A DNA stretch of 64,000 bases, taken from a virus (lineage: Duplodnaviria; Heunggongvirae; Uroviricota; Caudoviricetes). Shown here in pieces: positions 4,659-58,892 of this stretch (position 1 is its first letter; every line of letters starts with the position of its first letter). Position numbers and translations under genes: made by a program. The stretch lies in the IMG/VR virus record IMGVR_UViG_2706794662_000007, one strand, 5' to 3'. The notes beneath the pieces are model-generated. The model saw nothing but the letters and a program-made list of their open reading frames with translations. It had not been told where the DNA came from and ran no database searches.

Positions 4659-5435
4659 TTAGTGGTTGGTAGACCTGGCATCAAATGTTGTAACGCCCAC
4701 TTCAATGTGGCGGTCTTCTTTGGAGATGATGGTGAGAATCTGACTAGATGGGTCTATGCTGACAGCCATAGGGTTCCAGTGACGTAACTGAGCCTCGCTG
4801 TTCAATAGCAGCGCATCCCACGGTTTGACGCCATTCTGCCCAATACCACCTTCAACAAGGACATCTATAAATTCTTTATTTAAATTGTCATAGATTTGGA
4901 CACGACCGACCAAAAGCATACCTACAGCCCAAATTCTGGCACCGTAAACCGTCTGATGGTCATCACATACTACATGGTCATGCCAATTGAGAAGAAAATT
5001 GTAAACTCTTCTAGCAAGTCCCTTTTGTTCCTTTGAAGGGGTTACAAATGCCCCTTTAATCTGGACCCCAAGGTGAGAGCCTTTTTGTGAGCGAAACTGG
5101 AATCGTTTGTAGACGAACCTGGCGATCTGAATGCCGTCATCATCTTCTTGCTCATCACCAACTAATTCACGAACACTATGAACTATCTCTTCTTCTGAAT
5201 GCCCCTGCTCGTCAAGATCCATTGCATGTTCTTGAAGCCAATCTGCATCAGGGTCGCCTACAAATGACACTGTCAAACAGTAATCATAATTAGACCCGAT
5301 CAAGGACCACTCTGTGAGCCGTAAAACAGAAAAATCAGAGTTAACCATGTAGCCAACTCTGATTTTCTCTCTTGCTTCACATTCAGGGAAATCAGACAGT
5401 ACTTTTGAATACTCTGCTATGAATGATGGTGACAT
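4659..5435 (-). CDS. hypothetical protein, 258 aa (acidic central region)
   Basis: ORF track; abuts next ORF with 1-nt gap. Confidence 0.5.
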   Translation of the reverse strand: MSPSFIAEYSKVLSDFPECEAREKIRVGYMVNSDFSVLRLTEWSLIGSNYDYCLTVSFVGDPDADWLQEHAMDLDEQGHSEEEIVHSVRELVGDEQEDDDGIQIARFVYKRFQFRSQKGSHLGVQIKGAFVTPSKEQKGLARRVYNFLLNWHDHVVCDDHQTVYGARIWAVGMLLVGRVQIYDNLNKEFIDVLVEGGIGQNGVKPWDALLLNSEAQLRHWNPMAVSIDPSSQILTIISKEDRHIEVGVTTFDARSTNH

Positions 5436-43167: not shown

Positions 43168-43575
43168 TTAAGCGAATACGCTTTCAGGGATTAAGGTGTC
43201 AGCAGGAATGCCGGAGGTAATGCGCAGACCATACTGACCAATCCAGGTAGTGTTAGTGTTCAGACTGGAAGCGAATACGGTGTTAACCATATTCATCATG
43301 GTTTCAAACACCTCTTTATTCACCTTACGGAAGTAACTTTCAATTTTCAACAACAACGGGTCCGTTGCATCAAAAATGGACTGATATTGCGCCTCATATT
43401 CCCCGCCTGATGTATCTCCTTTACGCACAATAGTACTTGCCTGAACTTCAGTTCCAGTTTCGGTGTTGTACGTAACGACGGTGATTTTAGCTACATTCTT
43501 ACCTTCGGCGCTTTCTGAAGCATAGTAGACATCAACTGTCAGGTTTTCTCGTTTAACGCTCATATCACTCTCCAT
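43168..43575 (-). CDS. hypothetical protein, 135 aa
   Basis: ORF track. Confidence 0.45.
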   Translation of the reverse strand: MESDMSVKRENLTVDVYYASESAEGKNVAKITVVTYNTETGTEVQASTIVRKGDTSGGEYEAQYQSIFDATDPLLLKIESYFRKVNKEVFETMMNMVNTVFASSLNTNTTWIGQYGLRITSGIPADTLIPESVFA

Positions 43576-46934: not shown

Positions 46935-46988
46935 TTCAACTACTCCAAAACAAGTTGTTTTCTTATGTGGCTTATTATCTCAATCAAC

Positions 46989-47011
46989 AAAAGGTAGAAA
47001 ACAAATTGTTT
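46989..47011. repeat. 23-bp element AAAAGGTAGAAAACAAATTGTTT, left copy of exact direct repeat flanking metG-apbC
   Basis: identical 23-mer at 50832-50854. Confidence 0.8.
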
Positions 47012-47047
47012 TAGGGCTTGTGTAAATCAGGAGGGATTGTGTCTATA

Positions 47048-47095: not shown

Positions 47096-49034
47096 TTACT
47101 TAACCTGGTGGCCAGGTTTAGCACCAGCATCCGGGCTTAACAGGAAGATATCTTTCCCGCCAGGACCGGCAGCCATCACCATGCCTTCAGAGATACCGAA
47201 GCGCATTTTACGTGGTGCCAGGTTAGCCACCATAATGGTGTGACGACCAATCAGTGCCTGTGGATCTGGATAAGCGGAACGGATGCCTGAGAAGACATTA
47301 CGCTTTTCACCACCGAGATCCAGCGTCAGGCGAAGCAGTTTGTCAGAACCTTCGACAAACTCCGCGTTTTCAATCAGCGCCACACGCAGGTCAACTTTGG
47401 CGAAGTCGTCAAAGGTGATGGTTTCCTGAATCGGTTCGTCAGCCAGTGGGCCAGTTACCGGTGCAGCTGTGGCTTTCACTTCTTCTTTGGATGCTTCCAC
47501 CAGTGCTTCCACCTGTTTCATATCGATACGGTTATACAGTGCCTTGAACGGATTCACTTTATGGCCCAGAAGCGGTTGCTGGATACCATCCCAGGTCAGT
47601 TCTGTATTCAGGAATGCTTCTGCACGTTCAGTCAGTTTCGGCAGTACCGGTTTCAGGTACGTCATCAGCACGCGGAACAGGTTAATGCCCATAGAGCAAA
47701 TCGCCTGCAGATCTGCATCGCGACCTTCCTGCTTCGCCACCACCCACGGAGCCTGTTCATCGACATAGCGATTAGCCAGGTCAGCCAATGCCATGATTTC
47801 ACGGATAGCTTTACCAAATTCGCGGCTTTCCCATGCTTCGCCAATCACTTCAGCGGCATCAGTAAAGGTTTTGTACAGTTGCGGGTCAGCCAGTTCGCTT
47901 GTCAGCACGCCGTCAAAACGCTTGTTGATAAAGCCTGCATTACGGGAGGCCAGGTTAACCACTTTGTTCACGATATCGGCATTCACGCGCTGAACGAAAT
48001 CTTCCAGGTTGAGATCGATATCATCAATGCGCGAAGAGAGTTTCGCAGTGTAGTAGTAACGCAGGCTGTCAGCGTCAAAATGATTCAGCCAGGTGCTGGC
48101 TTTAATAAAGGTGCCGCGAGACTTGGACATCTTCGCGCCGTTCACCGTCACATAGCCGTGAACAAACAGGTTGGTCGGCTTGCGGAAGTTGCTGCCTTCC
48201 AGCATGGCAGGCCAGAACAGACTGTGGAAGTAAACGATATCTTTGCCGATGAAGTGGTACAGCTCGGCGGTGGAGTCTTTCTTCCAGTATTCGTCGAAGC
48301 TTACGCTGTCGCCGCGCTTGTCGCACAGATTCTTGAAAGAACCCATGTAGCCAATCGGCGCGTCCAGCCAGACGTAGAAATATTTGCCCGGCGCGTTCGN
48401 NNNNNNNNNNNNNNNNNNNNNNNNNNNNNNNNNNNNNNNNNNNNNNNNNNNNNNNNNNNNNNNNNNNNNNNNNNNNNNNNNNNNNNNNNNNNNNNNNNNN
48501 NNNNNNNNNNNNNNNNNNNNNNNNNNNNNNNNNNNNNNNNNNNNNNNNNNNNNNNNNNNNNNNNNNNNNNNNNNNNNNNNNNNNNNNNNNNNNNNNNNNN
48601 NNNNNNNNNNNNNNNNNNNNNNNNNNNNNNNNNNNNNNNNNNNNNNNNNNNNNNNNNNNNNNNNNNNNNNNNNNNNNNNNNNNNNNNNNNNNNNNNNNNN
48701 NNNNNNNNNNNNNNNNNNNNNNNNNNNNCTCTTCGCTGTGCGTCGAGTGATAGTTGTCATAGCTGATGTTAAAGCCTGCGAAATCAGTCTGATGTTCCTG
48801 ACTCATTTCGCCAATCATCTGTTCCGGTGTGATACCAAGCTGCTGTGCTTTCAGCATGATTGGCGTACCGTGGGCATCGTCGGCACAGATGAAATTAACC
48901 TCGTGGCCGCGCATTCGCTGGTAACGAACCCAGACATCAGCCTGGATGTGCTCCAGCATATGGCCGAGGTGGATTGAGCCGTTAGCGTACGGCAGCGCGC
49001 ACGTCACCAGAATTTTCTTCGCGACTTGGGTCAT
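47096..49034 (-). CDS. metG: methionine--tRNA ligase (interrupted by N-run; frame differs on the two sides of the mask)
   Basis: N-terminus [29 protein letters not shown] and C-terminus ...[24 protein letters not shown] recognised as enterobacterial MetRS. Confidence 0.9.
48390..48728. other. run of 339 N inside metG
   Basis: literal n characters. Confidence 1.
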
Positions 49035-49191: not shown

Positions 49192-50292
49192 ATGAGCGAG
49201 TCCAAATCGCCGGATGCCCTGAGAGCAATGGTAGCCGGTACGCTGGCTAATTTTCAGCACCCAACCCTGAAACACAACTTGACTACGCTTAAAGCGTTAC
49301 ACCATGTTGCGTTGATGGATGACACACTGCATGTCGAACTAATCATGCCTTTCGTGTGGAATAAGCCTTTTGAAGACCTGAAAGAGCAATGTAGTGGTGA
49401 TCTGCTCCGTATCACTGGCGCAAAGGCTATTGACTGGAAGCTGTCGTACAACATTGCCACGCTTAAGCGCGTCAAAAACCAACCAGGCATTAATGGCGTT
49501 AAGAACATTATCGCCGTCAGCTCAGGCAAGGGCGGCGTGGGTAAATCCTCCACAGCAGTAAACTTGGCACTGGCTTTGGCTGCTGAAGGTGCGAAAGTTG
49601 GTATTTTGGATGCCGATATCTATGGTCCATCAATTCCAACCATGCTGGGCGCGGAAAACCAACGTCCAACCTCACCGGACGGTACTCACATGGCACCTAT
49701 CATGTCTCATGGCCTGGCAACCAACTCTATTGGTTATCTGGTCACCGATGACAATGCAATGGTGTGGCGTGGACCGATGGCGAGCAAGGCGCTGATGCAG
49801 ATGTTGCAGGAAACACTGTGGCCTGATCTGGACTATCTCGTTCTCGATATGCCACCGGGCACTGGTGATATTCAATTGACGCTGGCGCAGAACATTCCTG
49901 TAACTGGTGCGGTTGTGGTAACTACGCCGCAAGACATCGCGCTGATCGATGCGAAGAAAGGCATTGTGATGTTCGAAAAAGTCGAAGTGCCGGTACTGGG
50001 TATCGTTGAAAACATGAGTGTGCATATTTGCAGTAACTGCGGTCATCACGAGCCAATTTTTGGCACCGGTGGAGCACAGAAACTGGCCGAGAAATACAAC
50101 ACGCAGTTGTTAGGCCAAATGCCACTTCATATCTCTCTTCGTGAAGATCTGGATAACGGAACACCAACCGTTATTAGTCGTCCAGATAGCGAATTTACGG
50201 CTATTTATCGTGACCTCGCAGATCGCGTTGCTGCCCAAATGTATTGGCAAGGTGAAGTAATACCTGGCGAAATCGCATTCCGCGCAGTGTGA
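49192..50292 (+). CDS. apbC: iron-sulfur cluster carrier protein ApbC/Mrp
   Basis: 366 aa, Walker A SGKGGVGKS, CxxC near C-terminus; divergent from metG as in enterobacterial chromosomes. Confidence 0.9.
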   Translation: MSESKSPDALRAMVAGTLANFQHPTLKHNLTTLKALHHVALMDDTLHVELIMPFVWNKPFEDLKEQCSGDLLRITGAKAIDWKLSYNIATLKRVKNQPGINGVKNIIAVSSGKGGVGKSSTAVNLALALAAEGAKVGILDADIYGPSIPTMLGAENQRPTSPDGTHMAPIMSHGLATNSIGYLVTDDNAMVWRGPMASKALMQMLQETLWPDLDYLVLDMPPGTGDIQLTLAQNIPVTGAVVVTTPQDIALIDAKKGIVMFEKVEVPVLGIVENMSVHICSNCGHHEPIFGTGGAQKLAEKYNTQLLGQMPLHISLREDLDNGTPTVISRPDSEFTAIYRDLADRVAAQMYWQGEVIPGEIAFRAV

Positions 50293-50329: not shown

Positions 50330-50719
50330 CTACATCACAGGACAATCATCAAACTCGCCACTTCTTGCGTCGTTGATAATGTGAGTGATCACACCAAACA
50401 CGGCATTGCTGCCCGTGCATCCATCGTCATCCTTTGGCAATGCTTCCTTCTTACCGGTTCTTAAATCCTCCAGATGCTGACGTGGAGACTTCCGGTATCT
50501 TTTTACGCGATATTCCCCATCCAGAGCGCATACAAGCAGAGAACCATCAACCGGGGTAAGTGAGGAATCAACCACCAGCAATGCACCCTGTAATATTCCC
50601 TCACGATGATGACTATCAGCTGCTCTCATGAAGTAGGTCGCTGAAGGATGTCTAATTATCTGCTGATCAAGAGAAATACGGCTCTCAGCATAATCCGCCG
50701 CAGGAGAAGGGAAGCCCAT
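50330..50719 (-). CDS. UmuD'-like S24 peptidase-fold protein (starts at the position equivalent to the UmuD self-cleavage site)
   Basis: MGFPSPAADY...HPSATYF matches UmuD from Gly25 onward; Ser and Lys of dyad retained (AADS, RVKR). Confidence 0.75.
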   Translation of the reverse strand: MGFPSPAADYAESRISLDQQIIRHPSATYFMRAADSHHREGILQGALLVVDSSLTPVDGSLLVCALDGEYRVKRYRKSPRQHLEDLRTGKKEALPKDDDGCTGSNAVFGVITHIINDARSGEFDDCPVM

Positions 50720-50735
50720 AGCGTTTTGCCCTCAA

Positions 50736-50755
50736 TACTGTTCATTTACACAGTA
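50736..50755. promoter_or_regulatory. LexA (SOS) box TACTGTTCATTTACACAGTA
   Basis: perfect CTGT-N8-ACAG core 17-36 nt upstream of UmuD'-like start; in-frame TGA upstream excludes longer ORF. Confidence 0.7.
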
Positions 50756-50831
50756 TACATGAAAGAAGCTCACTCAGTGCAACTGATCGGTACATAGCAC
50801 CAGACAAAGGAACGTTATTTTCTCGAACAAG

Positions 50832-50854
50832 AAAAGGTAGAAAACAAATTGTTT
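50832..50854. repeat. 23-bp element AAAAGGTAGAAAACAAATTGTTT, right copy of direct repeat, followed by hairpin 50855-50875
   Basis: identical to 46989-47011. Confidence 0.8.
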
Positions 50855-50904
50855 AAGGCCACAACTAGTGGCCTTAATGGAGAAGGGATGCTTATTGGCT
50901 ATGG

Positions 50905-51423
50905 CTAAAAATCAAANNNNNNNNNNNNNNNNNNNNNNNNNNNNNNNNNNNNNNNNNNNNNNNNNNNNNNNNNNNNNNNNNNNNNNNNNNNNNNNNNNNN
51001 NNNNNNNNNNNNNNNNNNNNNNNNNNNNNNNNNNNNNNNNNNNNNNNNNNNNNNNNNNNNNNNNNNNNNNNNNNNNNNNNNNNNNNNNNNNNNNNNNNNN
51101 NNNNNNNNNNNNNNNNNNNNNNNNNNNNNNNNNNNNNNNNNNNNNNNNNNNNNNNNNNNNNNNNNNNNNTTTAAAGGAAGATAGGTTCCCCATAGTAGCT
51201 GTCTGCCGTGCGCTCGTGTGAAATACCGGGCCATCTTCGGATTGCTATGCTGCTTAGGAGCGCCTGGTCTGTATGTCTGATACCCGGCCAACATCCCATC
51301 AAACCTGTATAGAGGGAATGTAACAACTCCTTCGCTTTCATCGATCCACTGTCTATATGGATGCACATCATAGCGGTAGTTACGAGTTAGCAAATGAGCT
51401 TCCAGCTTTCCAAATTTAGTCAT
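50905..51423 (-). CDS. hypothetical protein interrupted by N-run
   Basis: N-terminal part MTKFGKLEAHLLTRNYRYDVHPYRQWIDESEG... visible; start at internal Met. Confidence 0.4.
   Translation of the reverse strand: MTKFGKLEAHLLTRNYRYDVHPYRQWIDESEGVVTFPLYRFDGMLAGYQTYRPGAPKQHSNPKMARYFTRAHGRQLLWGTYLPLXXXXXXXXXXXXXXXXXXXXXXXXXXXXXXXXXXXXXXXXXXXXXXXXXXXXXXXXXXXXXXXXXXXXXXXXXXXXXXXXXXXXXFDF
50917..51169. other. run of 253 N
   Basis: literal n characters. Confidence 1.
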
Positions 51424-51436
51424 AACTTCGCATCCC

Positions 51437-52291
51437 TCATAACACTTCCCATTTATCACCATATTTCTCCATAGCTCTTAGCCAATAAACATGGCCACTA
51501 GGCATAGTGATGTGAGGCTCGCCAAACTCTTCTCCATGTACATCAAAGATGTCCCCAACAGAAAATTGGGGGATTTCTGTTCCGTTTTCACCTATATGTG
51601 TAATTCGTATACGTTTCGGTTGGGATTGTCCACCTTTGAGCGAGTTGTTCACTGCTCTGGCAATTTTCTCCCGCAATTGCTGCGTTCCGTGATACGTAAC
51701 CGCAATATCCCGCAACTCATTCACTAGTTCTCGAATTTGGTGATCTTTAAGCTCATTATTTGGGTGATTGGTAACAACTCTGGTTAATTCCCCATTGTCT
51801 TTTGCTCTTACGTATGCAGCTCTTGTGCATTCGCCCCATGTATTACCGCCTACATTAACTTCGTAGATTAGGCTGGACTTATCTGTCAATTCGGAACAAA
51901 TACGGGCCGTGGTCTGGCAACTAGAGCATTCGCAGTTATCGCGGAAACCGTGGTCTACTGGCTTCGGTTTAACATCATCAACTTTTTCTACCCTATTGGA
52001 ATTTAAATACTTCGAAGCCTTGCTATGCCAATCGCTGGTTTTAGGATCTTGTCCATCCATCAAACGCCAGGCTTCAGCTATTAACTCATAACTAGTGACT
52101 GTAGCTTCCTGCGCATCACCAATAAGTCGTGTAATCTCTCTTTCAAGCCGACCGCCTAACTCCGTTTTAGTGCAATGTTCTGACCAATCGCCAGTCTCAA
52201 GAAGCGCGAGAATGCTTAAAATATCGTCCAATAGAACGGTAGTATTATCGACTTCCTTCTGAAACTCACCGGCTACTGATTTATGCATCAT
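51437..52291 (-). CDS. hypothetical protein, 284 aa (Cys cluster CECSSC)
   Basis: ORF track. Confidence 0.5.
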   Translation of the reverse strand: MMHKSVAGEFQKEVDNTTVLLDDILSILALLETGDWSEHCTKTELGGRLEREITRLIGDAQEATVTSYELIAEAWRLMDGQDPKTSDWHSKASKYLNSNRVEKVDDVKPKPVDHGFRDNCECSSCQTTARICSELTDKSSLIYEVNVGGNTWGECTRAAYVRAKDNGELTRVVTNHPNNELKDHQIRELVNELRDIAVTYHGTQQLREKIARAVNNSLKGGQSQPKRIRITHIGENGTEIPQFSVGDIFDVHGEEFGEPHITMPSGHVYWLRAMEKYGDKWEVL

Positions 52292-52569
52292 TCGTCATCC
52301 TCATCCGAGTCATCCTCATCACAGGATGAGAGTAGTGGGTTAGTCATTCGCCCTACTTGAGTGGCGTAGCAACGCCGACAGAGATTGCGCAGCACACTGT
52401 ATATTTCGAACATCTCGGTTCGTTCATCGCCAACATCAAGCTCAGATGCTATAGCGTGGCATTCAGTCGCGAGAGCCGATATTTTCTGAAATAACTCTGC
52501 TTTATTCACTCTTCGACTCCTGCGGAGGTTCTGGTAGCGGCATCCAGTGAGTTGCTTGCTCAATACCAT
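52288..52569 (-). CDS. small hypothetical protein with acidic C-terminus (start uncertain)
   Basis: ORF track; 5' part overlaps upstream gene so true start likely internal. Confidence 0.3.
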   Translation of the reverse strand: MVLSKQLTGCRYQNLRRSRRVNKAELFQKISALATECHAIASELDVGDERTEMFEIYSVLRNLCRRCYATQVGRMTNPLLSSCDEDDSDEDDE

Positions 52570-53119
52570 TACCCGGCTTAATCGTTACATCTCCGCGCCG
52601 AAAGGTGATTCCGGTATAGCGTGCGGAGCATATTAGCGGTTCAACCAGAGAGCTATCGAAATTCACCGAAATAAGCACGTTCTGGCCCTTTTCAGGCATT
52701 CGCTCACTACAGCTTATCCAACCATCCGGAGTTACCGGATGGGGTCCAGCGAACTCGGGAATGTCAGGACCTTTTCTGATAGCTTTAGCCAGATCCAGCG
52801 GGTCATCGTAAAGCCAGTCGCCAGTTTGTGGGTGATTTGCTTCTGCAAGCTGCGCAGCCCATTCAAGACCATCTTTTTGACCTTGGAGATAATCAAGCGG
52901 CAACTCTTCATGATTACTTGCAGGTTCTGCACTATCAGCTTCGCGCCGCTTCTGTAGCTCTGCTGCCATCGCTCTCACGACTTCAACTGGTGCCCTTGCA
53001 GCAAACTCTATGTTGGTGATCAGCTCATTAAGATATTGCTCGCCTGGATACTGTTTCTTATCGGTTATAGTGGTCATATCACTCTCCTTTTCCCTGAAGC
53101 ATAGCAGCGCGGCAGGCAT
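52502..53119 (-). CDS. DUF551-like prophage protein
   Basis: C-terminal ATHWMPLPEPP signature segment. Confidence 0.5.
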   Translation of the reverse strand: MPAALLCFREKESDMTTITDKKQYPGEQYLNELITNIEFAARAPVEVVRAMAAELQKRREADSAEPASNHEELPLDYLQGQKDGLEWAAQLAEANHPQTGDWLYDDPLDLAKAIRKGPDIPEFAGPHPVTPDGWISCSERMPEKGQNVLISVNFDSSLVEPLICSARYTGITFRRGDVTIKPGNGIEQATHWMPLPEPPQESKSE

Positions 53120-53465
53120 TCCAGCCTCTCACCTCTGCAATAGCGGCAACAGCATCAACCGCGTACATGCTAAGAGGATTAGGCATTGGTTTTTCTTCCG
53201 GTACTACTGGAACGGGTGGAGCGGCGTAGACCTCAATAATTCCATTATCAATAGGCCATTCTCCATCCTTGAGGTAGTCACTTGTGCCGTCAACTTGCTG
53301 TTCTGCAATGTGGAATGCACCTATTGGTTTTGCTTCCAGCGATGCCAGAGCAATTCGTGCCAGTTCTTCCGCTTCTTCTGCTGGCAGTACAACGTTGCTA
53401 CCAGGTCCGTATGTTTCGCGCCACTGTTTGATTGTCAGTAGTCGCTCTTTGGTAATAGTGGTCAT
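53079..53465 (-). CDS. Ea22-like early-region protein candidate
   Basis: 128 aa, N-terminus MTTITKERLL shared with neighbouring ORFs. Confidence 0.4.
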   Translation of the reverse strand: MTTITKERLLTIKQWRETYGPGSNVVLPAEEAEELARIALASLEAKPIGAFHIAEQQVDGTSDYLKDGEWPIDNGIIEVYAAPPVPVVPEEKPMPNPLSMYAVDAVAAIAEVRGWNACRAAMLQGKGE

Positions 53466-53489
53466 GTGTTACTCCTTAACCCGCAGTGC

Positions 53490-53739
53490 NNNNNNNNNNN
53501 NNNNNNNNNNNNNNNNNNNNNNNNNNNNNNNNNNNNNNNNNNNNNNNNNNNNNNNNNNNNNNNNNNNNNNNNNNNNNNNNNNNNNNNNNNNNNNNNNNNN
53601 NNNNNNNNNNNNNNNNNNNNNNNNNNNNNNNNNNNNNNNNNNNNNNNNNNNNNNNNNNNNNNNNNNNNNNNNNNNNNNNNNNNNNNNNNNNNNNNNNNNN
53701 NNNNNNNNNNNNNNNNNNNNNNNNNNNNNNNNNNNNNNN
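53490..53739. other. run of 250 N
   Basis: literal n characters. Confidence 1.
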
Positions 53740-53749
53740 AGTTGCCATA

Positions 53750-54271
53750 TCACTCTCCTTTGATGCGAATGCCTGCTGCAATGCTGTTTATGATGCTGTC
53801 AGTGCATGGAGTAGAAAGCTGGGCATCTCCAGCAATTTTCATGACCTCAACATCCGCATATCGAATACCGAGGTGTATCAGACCGGCTATACCTGACTTA
53901 AGTCGAACATTTTCCATAAACAGATCTTTTTCCCGCTGTTTAGCGGCTTCCAACTCCATCGACAATTTTTCCAACTGCTCTTTATGCTTCTTGTATTCCT
54001 GATACGCGTGCCAAGACTGACCTTTGCGCACACTATCAGTGATATCAGCAACCTGCTCCGGTGTTAGCGTGGTCAGTGGCTGTGCTGGAAAAATCATCAC
54101 TTTCCCGGCATCCCAATCAAAACCCGCCTGAATTGACTGAACCTCAACTGATGGTGTTGAACCGATGCGACCAGGCGAATGAACAACGATCGTTACATCC
54201 ATATCGCGACGATGGCTGTGGTTGTTGGACAAAATACGATTCACCAACTCAGAAAATTTGGAAAATTTCAT
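53750..54271 (-). CDS. Ea22-like protein (start at MKFSKF)
   Basis: C-terminus AAGIRIKGE identical to 54593..55123 product. Confidence 0.45.
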
Positions 54272-54591
54272 GCTGATCCCTCTTTCTCTCCCCGGATAAT
54301 TCTGTTGCACACATCCACACACTCGTCGCAGATGAAAACGGCGTCCCCAGCAATTAACTTTTTGACGGCGTACTGGGATTTGTTGCAGAAGCTGCAACAA
54401 AGTGTTCGCCTGACTGATAAGGATGGAGCGCCAGATGTCAGCCGCTCCATATCGTTCTTGCGACGCAATATCACACGGCTGAACTCAACCAGTTTCTCCG
54501 GGGATATCTCCTCCTCCGTAGCAAGCGCCTCTAATCGTTCGAGTATGTGGAAGGCTTTTTTCTGGGTAATTGCAGAATGCGATGTGGTCAT
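54268..54591 (-). CDS. ClpX-type C4 zinc-finger protein (domain-only)
   Basis: [34 protein letters not shown] parallels the ClpX N-terminal zinc-binding domain. Confidence 0.55.
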
Positions 54592-54592
54592 C

Positions 54593-55123
54593 TCACTCTC
54601 CTTTGATGCGAATGCCAGCGGCGCGGGAATCATTCCATCGCTTTACTTCTTCACGAATTACGTCAATGCATTCTTTCGAATCCATTAGGTAATCTTCATC
54701 AAAAAGACGTTCCTGTTCGTTTTCTATCGCAACAATGATTGCTTCAACTAACTTTTGTGCCTGAGAATCACTTTCTAACTCTGCTATGCGCTTACTTCCA
54801 TCCGAGATAACGCCCTCGTAATACTCACGCTGCTCGTTGAGTTTTGATTTTGCCAACTCCAGTTGTTTTGTTAGTTCCGCAATACGGCAAACATCGTTGA
54901 TACGCGTTTCCTCTAATGCGTTGATCTCATCCAGTAGTGCCAGCACGGTTTCTGGTCCGGCCAGAAATTTGAAGGCGTTGAGGGCATCAATATCAACACC
55001 GCTATCTTTAAGTTCCTGTTCACTTAACAAGTCATCATCAGCTGGCAACATTAACAGGCGTTCCATTGCTGGAATTGCACGTTCCGCCACCTCACGCAGT
55101 GCCTGGTAATTAATTTCGCTCAC
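54593..55123 (-). CDS. Ea22-like coiled-coil protein
   Basis: 176 aa; C-terminus AAGIRIKGE; stop-start junction duplicated at 53745. Confidence 0.45.
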
Positions 55124-55364
55124 TGGCTGCCTCCTGCTTTTCTGCCTTCAACACCATGCGAGAACCATCATCCAGCTCCCACACTATCTCACCACCTTCA
55201 GCCATGACCAGTTGCCACACCAATTGAGCAGCCTCATTGGTAACATCACGACCTGGATCATTGCCAACGCGCATACGTCCACCTTCAACATCGCGCATTT
55301 TTGCCAGCATGATAGTTTTTGATAGCGGTGAAAAACCAAGCTGTAGTCGTGCTGAATTACTCAC
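55110..55364 (-). CDS. small hypothetical protein, 84 aa
   Basis: ORF track. Confidence 0.4.
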   Translation of the reverse strand: MSNSARLQLGFSPLSKTIMLAKMRDVEGGRMRVGNDPGRDVTNEAAQLVWQLVMAEGGEIVWELDDGSRMVLKAEKQEAASERN

Positions 55365-55903
55365 TGGTTGCCTCCTTTGCGAAGCTGGGCAGCAAAGTCA
55401 ACTAACCACTCAGTCATTTCAACCTTCCCTACCAGGTCTGAACCAGGGTGCATACAGCAATCACTCTGCGCCGCTTTGAAATCCTTATACTCATATTCTT
55501 GGGCCACCAGATTTTTTGCAGCTTCTATAGCAGCATCCACCCCCTGCGCACGTACTTCAGCCAGAAAAGCATCGGTGGCTGGAGTCTCCGTTAATTCGCT
55601 AACCCAATTATCTCCGTGTTCCTCGGCACACATCGCATCGAATGCTCGCTCAGATTCTTTCAGGGCTGCATTCTCCGCCGCTAATGCGTCTCTCTGCGCC
55701 CGCAACTTCTCAATTTCGGCAGCCATGTAGTAACCAACCATAGCGAAGACGGCAAAAGAGTTGTCTGCCTCATCAGGCGACACTGAGGCCATTAGCAGAC
55801 CATCGTAATAATCGTGACTCCCATTGGTGATCGCCACCTCATAGGAGTCGTGGTTCTCACGCTTGTGAATGAGAACTACGGGGTTTTCGATTTTGTTACT
55901 CAT
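55361..55903 (-). CDS. Ea22-like protein, 180 aa
   Basis: ORF track; coiled-coil centre. Confidence 0.45.
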   Translation of the reverse strand: MSNKIENPVVLIHKRENHDSYEVAITNGSHDYYDGLLMASVSPDEADNSFAVFAMVGYYMAAEIEKLRAQRDALAAENAALKESERAFDAMCAEEHGDNWVSELTETPATDAFLAEVRAQGVDAAIEAAKNLVAQEYEYKDFKAAQSDCCMHPGSDLVGKVEMTEWLVDFAAQLRKGGNQ

Positions 55904-56041
55904 GTGTTTTTCTCTTCTTTGCTGTTACATAAGCACTACCAAGTGCTGGTTTATTTTCACAAATAAGAAAATGTAGAAAACAATTTATTTAAGGCCACAA
56001 CTTATGGCCTTTATTTATTCATGCCGAAGGATTTGTAGCGT

Positions 56042-56422
56042 CTAATTGCCGTATAAAATGGGGTGAGGTGCTTGCCAGTAGGCTCCACCGGTCCATGTGA
56101 ACCCCATGCGAATAAGAGTGTTTATTGCGGCTTTGGTAGACTCCGATTCGACACTGGCTTTACGAAACTCTTGAACCTCTTTCGCCAACCTGTATGTAAT
56201 TGTGCAGGGGACGATTGCAGCCCAGCCTTTCTCATGACTGTTAATGACCATCTGGATGTGACCATCCAGAATAGGTTGATTAGACATGTTATTGAAAATG
56301 TCTGCCTGTTTTTGAATGTGAAGAAAAAGCCTTGCCAGCTCCATTTGCTCACTACGAGACAAGGGATTATCAAGAGGGCTTTTTGCAAAAGCGGCTATAC
56401 GCTGTGCGTCAATGCCAAACAT
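56042..56422 (-). CDS. hypothetical protein, 126 aa
   Basis: ORF track. Confidence 0.45.
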   Translation of the reverse strand: MFGIDAQRIAAFAKSPLDNPLSRSEQMELARLFLHIQKQADIFNNMSNQPILDGHIQMVINSHEKGWAAIVPCTITYRLAKEVQEFRKASVESESTKAAINTLIRMGFTWTGGAYWQAPHPILYGN

Positions 56423-57126
56423 CAGCGCACCTCACCATCTTTATGGCTGGAGTTAACTTCCGCCATTAAATGTCTGACGTAATCGACAAGAGAGCCACCT
56501 GGTGGAATCTGGCATTCCTCAACTAACTGGAAGTAGATATCCGCAGCATTACGTGTATTGCTACCCGCGCATATTCTTTCTTCCCGAAGTGCATGAAGCT
56601 CGTTGATCAAACGGTCACACTCTCCGTTACGCTGATCCACAACAGCCTCAAGTTCTGCGACGCGTTCACCTGGCGTCTTACCTTCTTCGCGTTGGATGGT
56701 AACGACGAAATCGCCAATTGCAGGGACGTTGTAATCCAGCTCAAGGTAGTTTTTGGCACCGCTGCGGACGAACTCACCCGCGAACATGGTGGCGAACATC
56801 TCAGAGGCCATTGTGCTGTTGAAAAGTGACTCCAGATCTAACGGAGTCCCGGCAGCCAGAGCCTCTTTTGCTGTATCCATTGTATCCATGAACCGATCAA
56901 ACTCATTAGCGCGCTTTTCCAGGTCTTTCCATTGCTCGCTCCAACGTTTGGCAATGAAGTCTATGAATGTTTTCGCGGATTCATCAAAATCCCCCTCAAA
57001 CTTAACGATGCCTTTATCAATAATGATCTGGCCTACCGCATCCTCTGCATAACCTTTCAATGTAAACTTGAAAGGAAAATCAGAATGGCCTGTGACGTTA
57101 AAATGCTCTAACTGGAGGTTGTTCAT
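56422..57126 (-). CDS. hypothetical coiled-coil protein, 234 aa
   Basis: ORF track. Confidence 0.45.
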   Translation of the reverse strand: MNNLQLEHFNVTGHSDFPFKFTLKGYAEDAVGQIIIDKGIVKFEGDFDESAKTFIDFIAKRWSEQWKDLEKRANEFDRFMDTMDTAKEALAAGTPLDLESLFNSTMASEMFATMFAGEFVRSGAKNYLELDYNVPAIGDFVVTIQREEGKTPGERVAELEAVVDQRNGECDRLINELHALREERICAGSNTRNAADIYFQLVEECQIPPGGSLVDYVRHLMAEVNSSHKDGEVR

Positions 57127-57187
57127 ATGTTTTTCTCTTATCGTTTAGTTATTACATTCTTACACAAATTAAGTAAGTATTTACCTA

Positions 57188-58892
57188 TCATTTAACGCGT
57201 TTGAAAACGTATACGCTGACTGTGATCCCTGTGTCTTCAAACTCGTTGGTAAACGACTTCCCTCTGGCATAAACGTAATTATCCATCGTCATCCAGTCCA
57301 GTATTGGCGCNNNNNNNNNNNNNNNNNNNNNNNNNNNNNNNNNNNNNNNNNNNNNNNNNNNNNNNNNNNNNNNNNNNNNNNNNNNNNNNNNNNNNNNNNN
57401 NNNNNNNNNNNNNNNNNNNNNNNNNNNNNNNNNNNNNNNNNNNNNNNNNNNNNNNNNNNNNNNNNNNNNNNNNNNNNNNNNNNNNNNNNNNNNNNNNNNN
57501 NNNNNNNNNNNNNNNNNNNNNNNNNNNNNNNNNNNNNNNNNNNNNNNNNNNNNNNNNNNNNNNNNCCAGATCGGCGTTAATATAGGCCAGAAGATCCCCA
57601 CGTCCGGCTTGAGGCTCCAACAGCTTCTCACCAGGCTTCAATTCAGTGGCTCTGGCAACGTACTCAGCAATCAAGCGTGGGGTAGGGTAGAACTGGTGTG
57701 ATTTTGTATCCGGTATTAAACCGGTAGCCACAATCGTATTTAGCGTATGGCCGATCTCATACGGGAACTGCCAGTGCTTTTTCTCCTGCACGCCGCCAAT
57801 GAAGCTCAGTGTGCGCTCAAGCTCTTCCACCTGCGACTTCTGGAGAGCTGAATCAGAGAAGTACCATACGCCTTTGTCTTTGCTCAATCGCCCGTCACGA
57901 AGCGCAGTGCGAACCGGCACGGAGATCGTCTTCTGGATTAACCCGAACTGCTTTGGTGCCCGTGTTTTTGGCGCAGTTCGGCATGGCGCGGGGATTGCAG
58001 CAGGCATACTGTAAGCCAGCACCTCATTCAACTTCCAGGCCACGTCAGGATGTATTTCAAAGTGAACGTTGCCGTTCTTGAACATCTTCACGCGCATCAG
58101 ATTTCCATCGACGTTCATCCAGTCACCGGTCTGGCAGTCGTTTGCCCGATACGCAGCTGATAGCACCTCAGCAGTGCGGTTGATGGTAATAAATTCTTTG
58201 TGCGCGAAGAAATGAAGCAAGACACGCAGATCGTCGATGTAGTCCTCTTTGCGATAGTTCACGCTAACGCTGTCACGCCAGAAATCAGAAATGCAGTCAG
58301 CGATTATCAGACGCTCGCTGAAACCGTTTGTCTTATTTGTCTTGTGCGCAGGACTCAGCGCCTTAAACAAGCCATACACGCGCTCAGAGAGATATTTGTG
58401 CCTGTCATTCAGCAAATTAAGCATCGTTGGTATGACCGTTTCTGCTTTGAACTCCGGTACACCAACGAACTCTTTAACCTTCATCTGATAGCCGGTTCTG
58501 TCAGTTTTGATGACTTCCTGCTTGCCCTCGATAAATAGCTCACGCCACTCGTCGCGACGGGAAGCTGGCATGATCAGCAGAACGTTAGTCATATCCGTAA
58601 CCTTCCTCCAGTACTCGGCCCAAATATTCTGTTTCACCCATTCCAGATCGACGTTATCCAGCCAGACTCGATTCAAACGTGAGCGATCTTCATCTGGTCG
58701 GTGGTTTAGTCGAAGCAGGCGATTAATCATGTTGTGGCGTTCATCGCCATAAACGAAGTCGTGTACCTGATACATGAAGGAGATCTCTTTCTCGCACTCG
58801 GCCACAATTTCGTGGATGACGTTCATTTCCTGTCGATAGTCGATAGCAGTGTTTGAGCTGGCATCGCCCATGATGGAAAGGGCTGTATTCAT
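57188..58892 (-). CDS. gamma-class N6-adenine DNA methyltransferase-like protein with ~390-aa N-terminal extension (interrupted by N-run; C-terminal frame uncertain)
   Basis: motif X-like QFYPTPR and motif I-like LEPQAGRGDL just before mask. Confidence 0.5.
57311..57565. other. run of 255 N
   Basis: literal n characters. Confidence 1.

Follow-up and report, generated by a model that had tools for sequence, protein, structure and literature searches.

Why should two different phage genes end in the same nine residues and hand over to two further, different genes? This question is raised by a 64,000-nucleotide stretch of DNA from a Caudoviricetes virus (IMG/VR record IMGVR_UViG_2706794662_000007), referred to here as the window. 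An initial sequence-only reading had noticed one sequence at two of its gene junctions and had taken it for a footprint of recombination at a conserved linker. The element is a 24-nucleotide (nt) repeat that closes one gene and opens the next, and we consider it likely that it acts as a portable translational-coupling junction which also provides a short homology patch for the shuffling of gene cassettes.

The 24-mer, TCACTCTCCTTTGATGCGAATGCC on the plus strand, occurs in two exact copies in the window, arranged as direct repeats on the same strand 843 bp apart (Table 1). It was absent from all 100 dinucleotide-preserving shuffles of the window, where the chance expectation is none, and the presence of one sequence at both gene junctions is thus firmly established. 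Read on the minus strand, the 24-mer (GGC ATT CGC ATC AAA GGA GAG TGA) encodes GIRIKGE followed by a stop codon, and two minus-strand open reading frames (ORFs), of 176 and 173 amino acids (aa), have AAGIRIKGE as their C terminus. The two alanine codons ahead of the 24-mer differ between the copies (GCC GCT versus GCA GCA), so the nucleotide identity spans GIRIKGE and the stop. In an alignment of the two junctions, identity is limited to GCn GCn, the 24-mer, one further base and ATG rCn AC, with unrelated flanks on either side; over a longer stretch of 39 nt (53741-53779 versus 54584-54622), the copies are 87% identical.

The same 24 nt also carry the signals with which the next gene begins. 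AAGGAG, the consensus Shine-Dalgarno (SD) sequence, lies within the 24-mer at an optimal distance, 6 nt ahead of the ATG of the downstream gene, and the TGA stop is followed by that ATG after a single base (TGA-n-ATG), which is G at copy 1 and T at copy 2. The sequence-only reading had placed both the stop and the next start codon within the repeat; the stop is indeed inside it, but the start codon is adjacent, one base outside the 24-mer, and the positions given for the repeat (about 53746 and 54589) turn out to be those of the CAT complements of the two start codons. In its 3' half, the linker consists of the signals for the downstream gene (SD, stop and start context), and it is therefore also a translation element and not only a recombination scar.

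The genes that meet at the two junctions are different on both sides, as had been claimed. In BLASTP comparisons, the shared nine-residue tail was the sole similarity between the two upstream proteins, and no similarity at all was found between the two downstream proteins. The upstream gene at copy 1 scores 85.3 bits against PF13935 (gathering cut-off, 27), which places it in the Ead/Ea22 family. The upstream gene at copy 2 encodes a 173-aa protein for which a Pfam search gave no match, while its start is backed by homologues, many of which begin MKFSKF. Since the 173-aa gene carries the linker without a Pfam match, the linker is not confined to Ea22-family proteins. Most of the 87-aa gene downstream of copy 2 lies under a run of N (53490-53739), and its sequence was taken from CP054387.1 (locus L002), which agrees 100% with the window at the unmasked bases flanking the mask. 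The mask measures 250 nt and its counterpart in CP054387.1 241 nt, so that coordinates across the mask are shifted by 9. Further runs of N occur in the window, for example, at about 50930-51190 and 57310-57570.

To place the two junctions among those of other phages, we compared the sequences that flank the linker elsewhere. The exact 24-mer is present in at least 120 IMG/VR contigs, a sample that includes redundant prophages; among the IMG/VR matches listed, to which the following counts refer, flanks could be extracted from 117 junctions with full flanks, and flank classes were set by ungapped 70% identity. The 117 junctions fall into at least 13 unrelated upstream classes and at least 21 downstream classes, joined in at least 53 distinct combinations. 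Where two junctions had upstream sequences at least 90% identical and unrelated downstream sequences, the 3' edge of the linker marked the end of homology in 477 of 518 pairs. In the converse pairs, homology stopped at the 5' edge in 384 of 421 and within 5 nt of that edge in 421 of 421, so that in about 91 to 92% of informative pairs homology ends exactly at an edge of the linker. Where both flanks were unrelated, the two junctions of a pair had a median of 28 identical nt in common. The base after the TGA segregates with the downstream class, and the 6 nt ahead of the linker segregate with the upstream class; because these edge polymorphisms follow their own side, the crossovers fall inside the 24-mer. 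Each flank of the window's junctions has separate relatives in other phages, and the junction that recombination between the two copies in the window would be expected to create, with the Ea22 tail followed by MATLTKKE..., is present in another locus (L118). Repeated use of the linker between unrelated partners, with breakpoints at its edges, is evident from these alignments, and the comparative survey bears out the earlier suggestion of recombination at a conserved linker.

The linker is also widely distributed. We found it in 364 phage records, and its carriers include Shiga toxin (Stx) phages, P22-like phages of Salmonella, phage HK620 (at the hkaG/hkaF junction) and the P1-like phage P7 (in the hea operon). 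Among complete Escherichia coli genomes, 2,354 of 5,426 (43%) contain it, with a median of 2 and a maximum of 12 places per genome; 6,849 places are chromosomal and 455 are on plasmids. In phage lambda (NC_001416; locus L137, 29655-29870), ea22 ends in ...AGIRIKGE with the exact 24-mer. A host-range survey of bacterial genome contigs was set aside as mostly uninformative, since 32 of its 38 matches to the 24-mer were lambda ea22. Those 32 matches (scan of loci L138 to L175) lie on tiny or 48.5-kb low-coverage contigs filed under Streptomyces, Bacillus, Streptococcus, Shewanella and other genera, and the contigs are lambda DNA contamination of public assemblies.

We propose that the 24-mer serves as a portable inter-gene linker in the early accessory ("ea" or exo-xis-type) arrays of temperate enterobacterial phages. 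It would supply the last seven codons (G-I-R-I-K-G-E) to any upstream gene, together with an SD sequence (AAGGAG) 6 nt ahead of the next start and a TGA one base from the ATG, and a gene placed behind it would be translated through coupling or re-initiation from the upstream ORF. The approximately 24 to 28 bp that are identical among phages and prophages sharing a cell would then form a minimal homology patch, within which homologous recombination could swap either side, in frame and expression ready. The minimal pairing segment has been put at 23 to 27 bp for Red-beta and 31 to 34 bp for RecA (PMC3945230), and this shorter requirement would make phage annealing proteins of the Red-beta/RecT type the most plausible agents. 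The enzymology is inferred from the pattern of junctions, and the linker may or may not be selected for such a role.

Several points weigh against this proposal. Many mosaic breakpoints of the region are intragenic and away from any linker; the linker is consequently not required for shuffling and would be one route, not the only one. At 24 to 28 bp, the patch barely reaches the Red-beta minimum and falls short of that of RecA. In lambda, the linker is followed by GATCGG instead of GATG and then by 191 nt of noncoding sequence before ea8.5, with no gene start. Since lambda retains the exact linker without a downstream gene, its conservation does not always depend on one, and this "dead-end" linker suggests the loss of a downstream cassette. 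In the circular phage PhiR41_1, homology breaks after only GGCATT, inside the GIRIKGE linker, and a different junction continues (AAAGAGGGGTCAGCACGATGA; L001, about 5330-5365). A selected recombination handle and a by-product of a shared gene end bearing a ribosome-binding site (RBS) are inseparable on these data, and recombination at the site and translational coupling are both deduced from sequence.

A stronger version of the proposal seems doubtful to us. In it, the linker would be a selected "plug-and-play" adaptor, a coupling cassette combined with a homology handle of recombinase length, maintained for the in-frame trade of promoterless accessory genes between co-resident temperate phages. 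If that were so, the arrays would amount to an integron-like cassette system without a dedicated integrase; the trading families would be lambda-like, P22-like and P1-like phages and SSU5-like phage-plasmids, and the ...RKGGNQ family, in which stop and start overlap as GTGA, would be at least one further linker to act alike in the same arrays.

An unlikely alternative in our view is that the linker is an RBS and coupling element shared by descent, with the combinations arising from illegitimate recombination and selection for intact genes and with no role for linker homology. This would accord with the general model of phage mosaicism favored by Hendrix and colleagues (as cited in PMC3233612), the SD and stop would explain the 3' 12 nt of the linker, and many breakpoints in the region are intragenic, without obvious linkers. 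Illegitimate recombination should nevertheless leave variable boundaries, whereas the actual boundary is constant within 5 nt for at least 13 upstream and at least 21 downstream modules. Moreover, the 5' 12 nt (GGCATTCGCATC), which are not part of the SD, stay identical between unrelated contexts and vary less than homologous flanks do.

Conservation might instead act on the protein: the shared tail could work as a C-terminal peptide, for instance by tagging the protein for degradation or by binding a partner, with the DNA identity secondary. Nine identical residues do end two unrelated proteins, there is weak extended similarity among tails (the W.. form and RGWNACRAAMLQGKGE), lambda keeps the tail without a downstream gene, and all Ea22 proteins have been reported to end in K/R-G-E (PMC7093339). 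Selection on a peptide should, however, tolerate synonymous change, of which there is almost none: a codon-degenerate scan for GIRIKGE and the stop recovered 4 of 3,456 possible encodings, with 122 exact sites and 14 with one synonymous change. Nucleotide diversity in the linker was 0.0086 per site over all pairs, unrelated flanks included, compared with 0.033 within homologous-flank classes, and at third codon positions, it was 0.029 in the linker and 0.052 to 0.059 in the flanks. With only the SD, stop and start required, in a scan that fixed AAAGGAGAGTGAnATG alone, amino acid changes in GIRI were commoner than silent ones (7 sites with nonsynonymous variants of the 5' half, namely, DIRIKGE, NIRIKGE, DIGIKGE, NTGIKGE and VICIKGE, and 3 with synonymous variants). 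The same scan found the same downstream genes fed by other sub-linkers as well (...NRWKNHLRTKGE, ...WNACRAAML[QH]GKGE and ...RAAAAGKGE).

The same upstream domain is likewise found with many other tails. Homologues of the 173-aa protein have C termini such as ...LRKGGNQ, ...TKEGAAR and ...LRRGSSK, and these alternatives all encode GGAG- or GAGG-like strings. K-G-E itself is simply the translation of AAA-GGA-GAG, that is, of the SD. In the C-terminal domain of lambda Ea22 (PDB 8DSX), 64 structured residues follow the unassigned residues 102-111 (PMC10834534), a count that would put the end of the structured domain near residue 175, immediately ahead of GIRIKGE. The few encodings, the low diversity, the nonsynonymous variants and the alternative tails argue that the tail is the translation of an element conserved at the DNA or RNA level and not a conserved functional peptide, which we regard as very unlikely. 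A variant of the linker with GAA for Glu occurs in loci L124, L125, L127, L129, L130, L131 and L133, where a stop codon lies just 10 codons upstream (...RRYCE stop); the variant there follows a mini-ORF or sits in a remnant, yet it still stands ahead of a gene that begins MTTFTKE....

A structured RNA element or an attC-like site for site-specific recombination, whose one point in favor is that so short a sequence is strongly conserved where cassettes meet, is extremely improbable: a search of 50500-57500 against Rfam returned no match at E ≤ 1, the three junction RNAs fold differently and share no fold (z-scores of -1.9, +0.3 and -0.3), the linker has no inverted repeat, and the array has no associated integrase. 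Local tandem duplication in this genome, which two direct copies 843 bp apart on one strand might bring to mind, is ruled out for practical purposes by the flank alignment and BLASTP, as identity covers about 24 to 39 nt and not whole genes, the upstream proteins share the tail only and the downstream proteins nothing, and the relatives in other phages differ from flank to flank.

The element that carries the linker had been taken for a lambdoid prophage. The capsid and terminase genes of the window are 83% identical to those of Salmonella phage SSU5, and the closest records are circular "phages" of 108 to 109 kb (among them CMS-2020a, PhiR41_1 and Cyrano), i.e., SSU5-like phage-plasmids. Judging from these matches, the host element is an SSU5-like phage-plasmid and not a lambdoid prophage.

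Both linker copies lie inside a dense co-directional array of eight to ten Ea22-type genes, which occupies about 5 kb of the minus strand from 55903 down to 50905. No promoter-like sites were found on the coding (minus) strand between 50600 and 56200, and one weak minus-strand terminator-like hairpin (53818-53833) lies within the 173-aa gene, off any junction. Nearly all proteins of the array between 51437 and 55903 on the minus strand have partial-length matches to several PHROG families, and the breakpoints seen with blastn cluster inside genes (for example, at 52690-52740, 53330, 53940-53950, 54780-54850 and 55530-55590). Together, the partial matches and the intragenic clusters show that domain-level mosaicism is pervasive alongside linker-level exchange.

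Other junctions of the array likewise embed an SD, with stop/start overlap, and standardized junctions seem to characterize the arrays as such rather than any one sequence. The related junction at 53075-53089 joins a 128-aa gene (53079-53465) to a DUF551 gene (52502-53077; MTTITDKK...). A second linker family, AAAGGAGGCAACCAGTGAG, joins a 180-aa gene (55361-55903) to a DUF7446 gene (55110-55364), and in the loci that we fetched, it occupies 52 sites with 18 by 18 flank classes in 38 combinations. The third junction type, AAAGAGGGATCAGCATGA, stands between the ClpX-zinc-finger gene and the 173-aa gene; it is a relative of this type that continues after GGCATT in PhiR41_1, and tails of the form ...TKEG[AS]AR are present in homologues. 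One near-match to the linker, CATATCACTCTCCAT at 43561-43575, was rejected as a plain RBS and start, since no upstream ORF ends there.

Table 1. Linker copies, adjoining genes and other junctions of the accessory array (window coordinates)
Feature	Position	Strand	Description	Basis
Linker copy 1	54593..54616	minus	GGCATTCGCATCAAAGGAGAGTGA = GIRIKGE + stop; AAGGAG SD for next gene	exact match, alignment
Linker copy 2	53750..53773	minus	24-mer identical to copy 1	exact match, alignment
Upstream gene 1	54593..55123	minus	Ead/Ea22-like, 176 aa	Pfam PF13935, E=7.6e-24; ORF
Start codon of ClpX-zinc-finger gene	54589..54591	minus	ATG, one base (G) past the TGA of copy 1	
Downstream gene 1	54268..54591	minus	107 aa (MTTSHS...); C-terminal ClpX-type C4 zinc finger	PF06689, E=1.3e-15; phrog_6797, full-length
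Upstream gene 2	53750..54271	minus	173-aa protein of unknown function	phrog_6026, E=1.3e-56; 2406 homologues
Start codon of 87-aa gene	53746..53748	minus	ATG, one base (T) past the TGA of copy 2	
Downstream gene 2	53476..53748	minus	87 aa (MATLTKKERAWLNE...)	phrog_1714, full-length, E=1.8e-50; read from CP054387.1
Related junction	53075..53089	minus	core CATATCACTCTCCTT; AAGGAGAGTGA t ATG	...RGWNACRAAMLQGKGE stop (...AAMLQGKGE), 1 nt, ATG
Diverged fourth junction	~53451-53482	minus		similarity to linker
Second linker family	55360..55378	minus	AAAGGAGGCAACCAGTGAG = ...RKGGNQ stop; GTG start overlaps TGA	
Third junction type	54268..54285	minus	AAAGAGGGATCAGCATGA = ...EKEGSA stop; ATGA stop/start overlap	

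Some further features of the array and its surroundings were observed. In the 107-aa protein encoded behind copy 1, the C-terminal 36 residues match the N-terminal C4 zinc finger of ClpX, and by this likeness the protein might mimic the binding of ClpX adaptors or compete with it. A 64-nt intergenic element brackets the whole array as direct repeats (55951-56014 and 50815-50878) and is also found at about 46936-47016; its copies are 86% identical and contain a terminator-like hairpin, AAGGCCACnnnnnGTGGCCTT. In SSU5 (JQ965645), the element is scattered between blocks of accessory genes (85572-85642, 87603-87638 and 88314-88392), and it may bound multigene cassettes in SSU5-like phage-plasmids. 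Beside the array are genes for a methionyl-tRNA-synthetase-like protein with a tRNA-binding domain and for a P-loop ATPase of the Mrp/NUBPL type (47096-48760, minus strand; 49192-50292, plus strand), and a UmuD-like gene is annotated at the corresponding place in PhiR41_1.

The linker matters in several ways. It offers a concrete, testable explanation for the published K/R-G-E ending of Ea22 proteins with otherwise unrelated C-terminal domains. It also provides an unusually well-quantified case in the debate over whether phage mosaicism arises through conserved boundary sequences or through illegitimate recombination only. The same junction links the gene pool of lambdoid prophages, which are integrated, with that of the extrachromosomal P1-like and SSU5-like phage-plasmids, and it bears on the spread of accessory genes, possibly with anti-defense or lysogeny-modulating roles, in E. 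coli, including in Stx phages. In practical terms, the linker can be used as a marker for "ea" accessory arrays, and it calls for caution in annotation, as proteins with only this tail in common are not homologues.

Among known systems, integron cassettes resemble these arrays in that promoterless accessory genes are exchanged as units at a recurrent boundary. Unlike attC, the linker lacks an integrase and an imperfect inverted repeat and does not present a folded single-strand substrate, and exchange at the linker would be general or phage-encoded homologous recombination. Synthetic bicistronic-design RBS cassettes place an SD in the end of an upstream ORF and give context-independent initiation of any downstream gene. 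Natural translationally coupled junctions (reviewed in PMC12548453) are alike in having an SD embedded in the end of the upstream ORF and a stop that lies no more than a few bases from the start that follows. Ordinary coupled junctions are specific to a gene pair, whereas the linker is one sequence reused among many unrelated pairs, at which coupling would be expected from the arrangement of its signals.

At the protein level, the feature has been described before. All Ea22 proteins, with unrelated C-terminal domains, end in K/R-G-E, a "+GE" motif whose significance was called unknown (Dydecka et al. 2020, PMC7093339), and the mosaicism of Ea22 has been published, with a 16-aa segment common to variants V1 and V2 (PMC10834534). 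Full-text literature searches for GIRIKGE or for the nucleotide string returned nothing relevant. The two published studies leave the significance of the motif open; here, K-G-E corresponds to the SD of the next gene, and the motif is not specific to Ea22, since it is found on at least 13 C-terminal modules that are unrelated to one another. Translation of the linker would therefore explain the published "+GE" motif.

The closest relatives of the linker are the boundary sequences of lambdoid phages. That short conserved boundary sequences target recombination is a classical idea for these phages, found in the modular theory of Susskind and Botstein (1978) and in the work of Clark et al. (2001) on HK620 (both as cited in PMC3233612). 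The likeness is close: in both cases, a short conserved sequence at a gene boundary, with unrelated modules on either side, is the proposed target of recombination. Because HK620 carries this very 24-mer at hkaG/hkaF, Clark et al. may already have listed it. In contrast to those boundary sequences, the 24-mer lies within the upstream coding sequence and includes an RBS, and it is documented beyond the lambdoid phages, in the P1-like P7 and in SSU5-like phage-plasmids. De Paepe et al. reported recent exchanges within, and not between, the lambda-like and P1/P2/Mu groups. The linker and its modules occur in both of these groups, as well as in SSU5-like phage-plasmids. The linker is thus a well-documented new example of known phage boundary sequences, and it adds a modest new insight, that into the "+GE" motif, together with a distribution across phage families.

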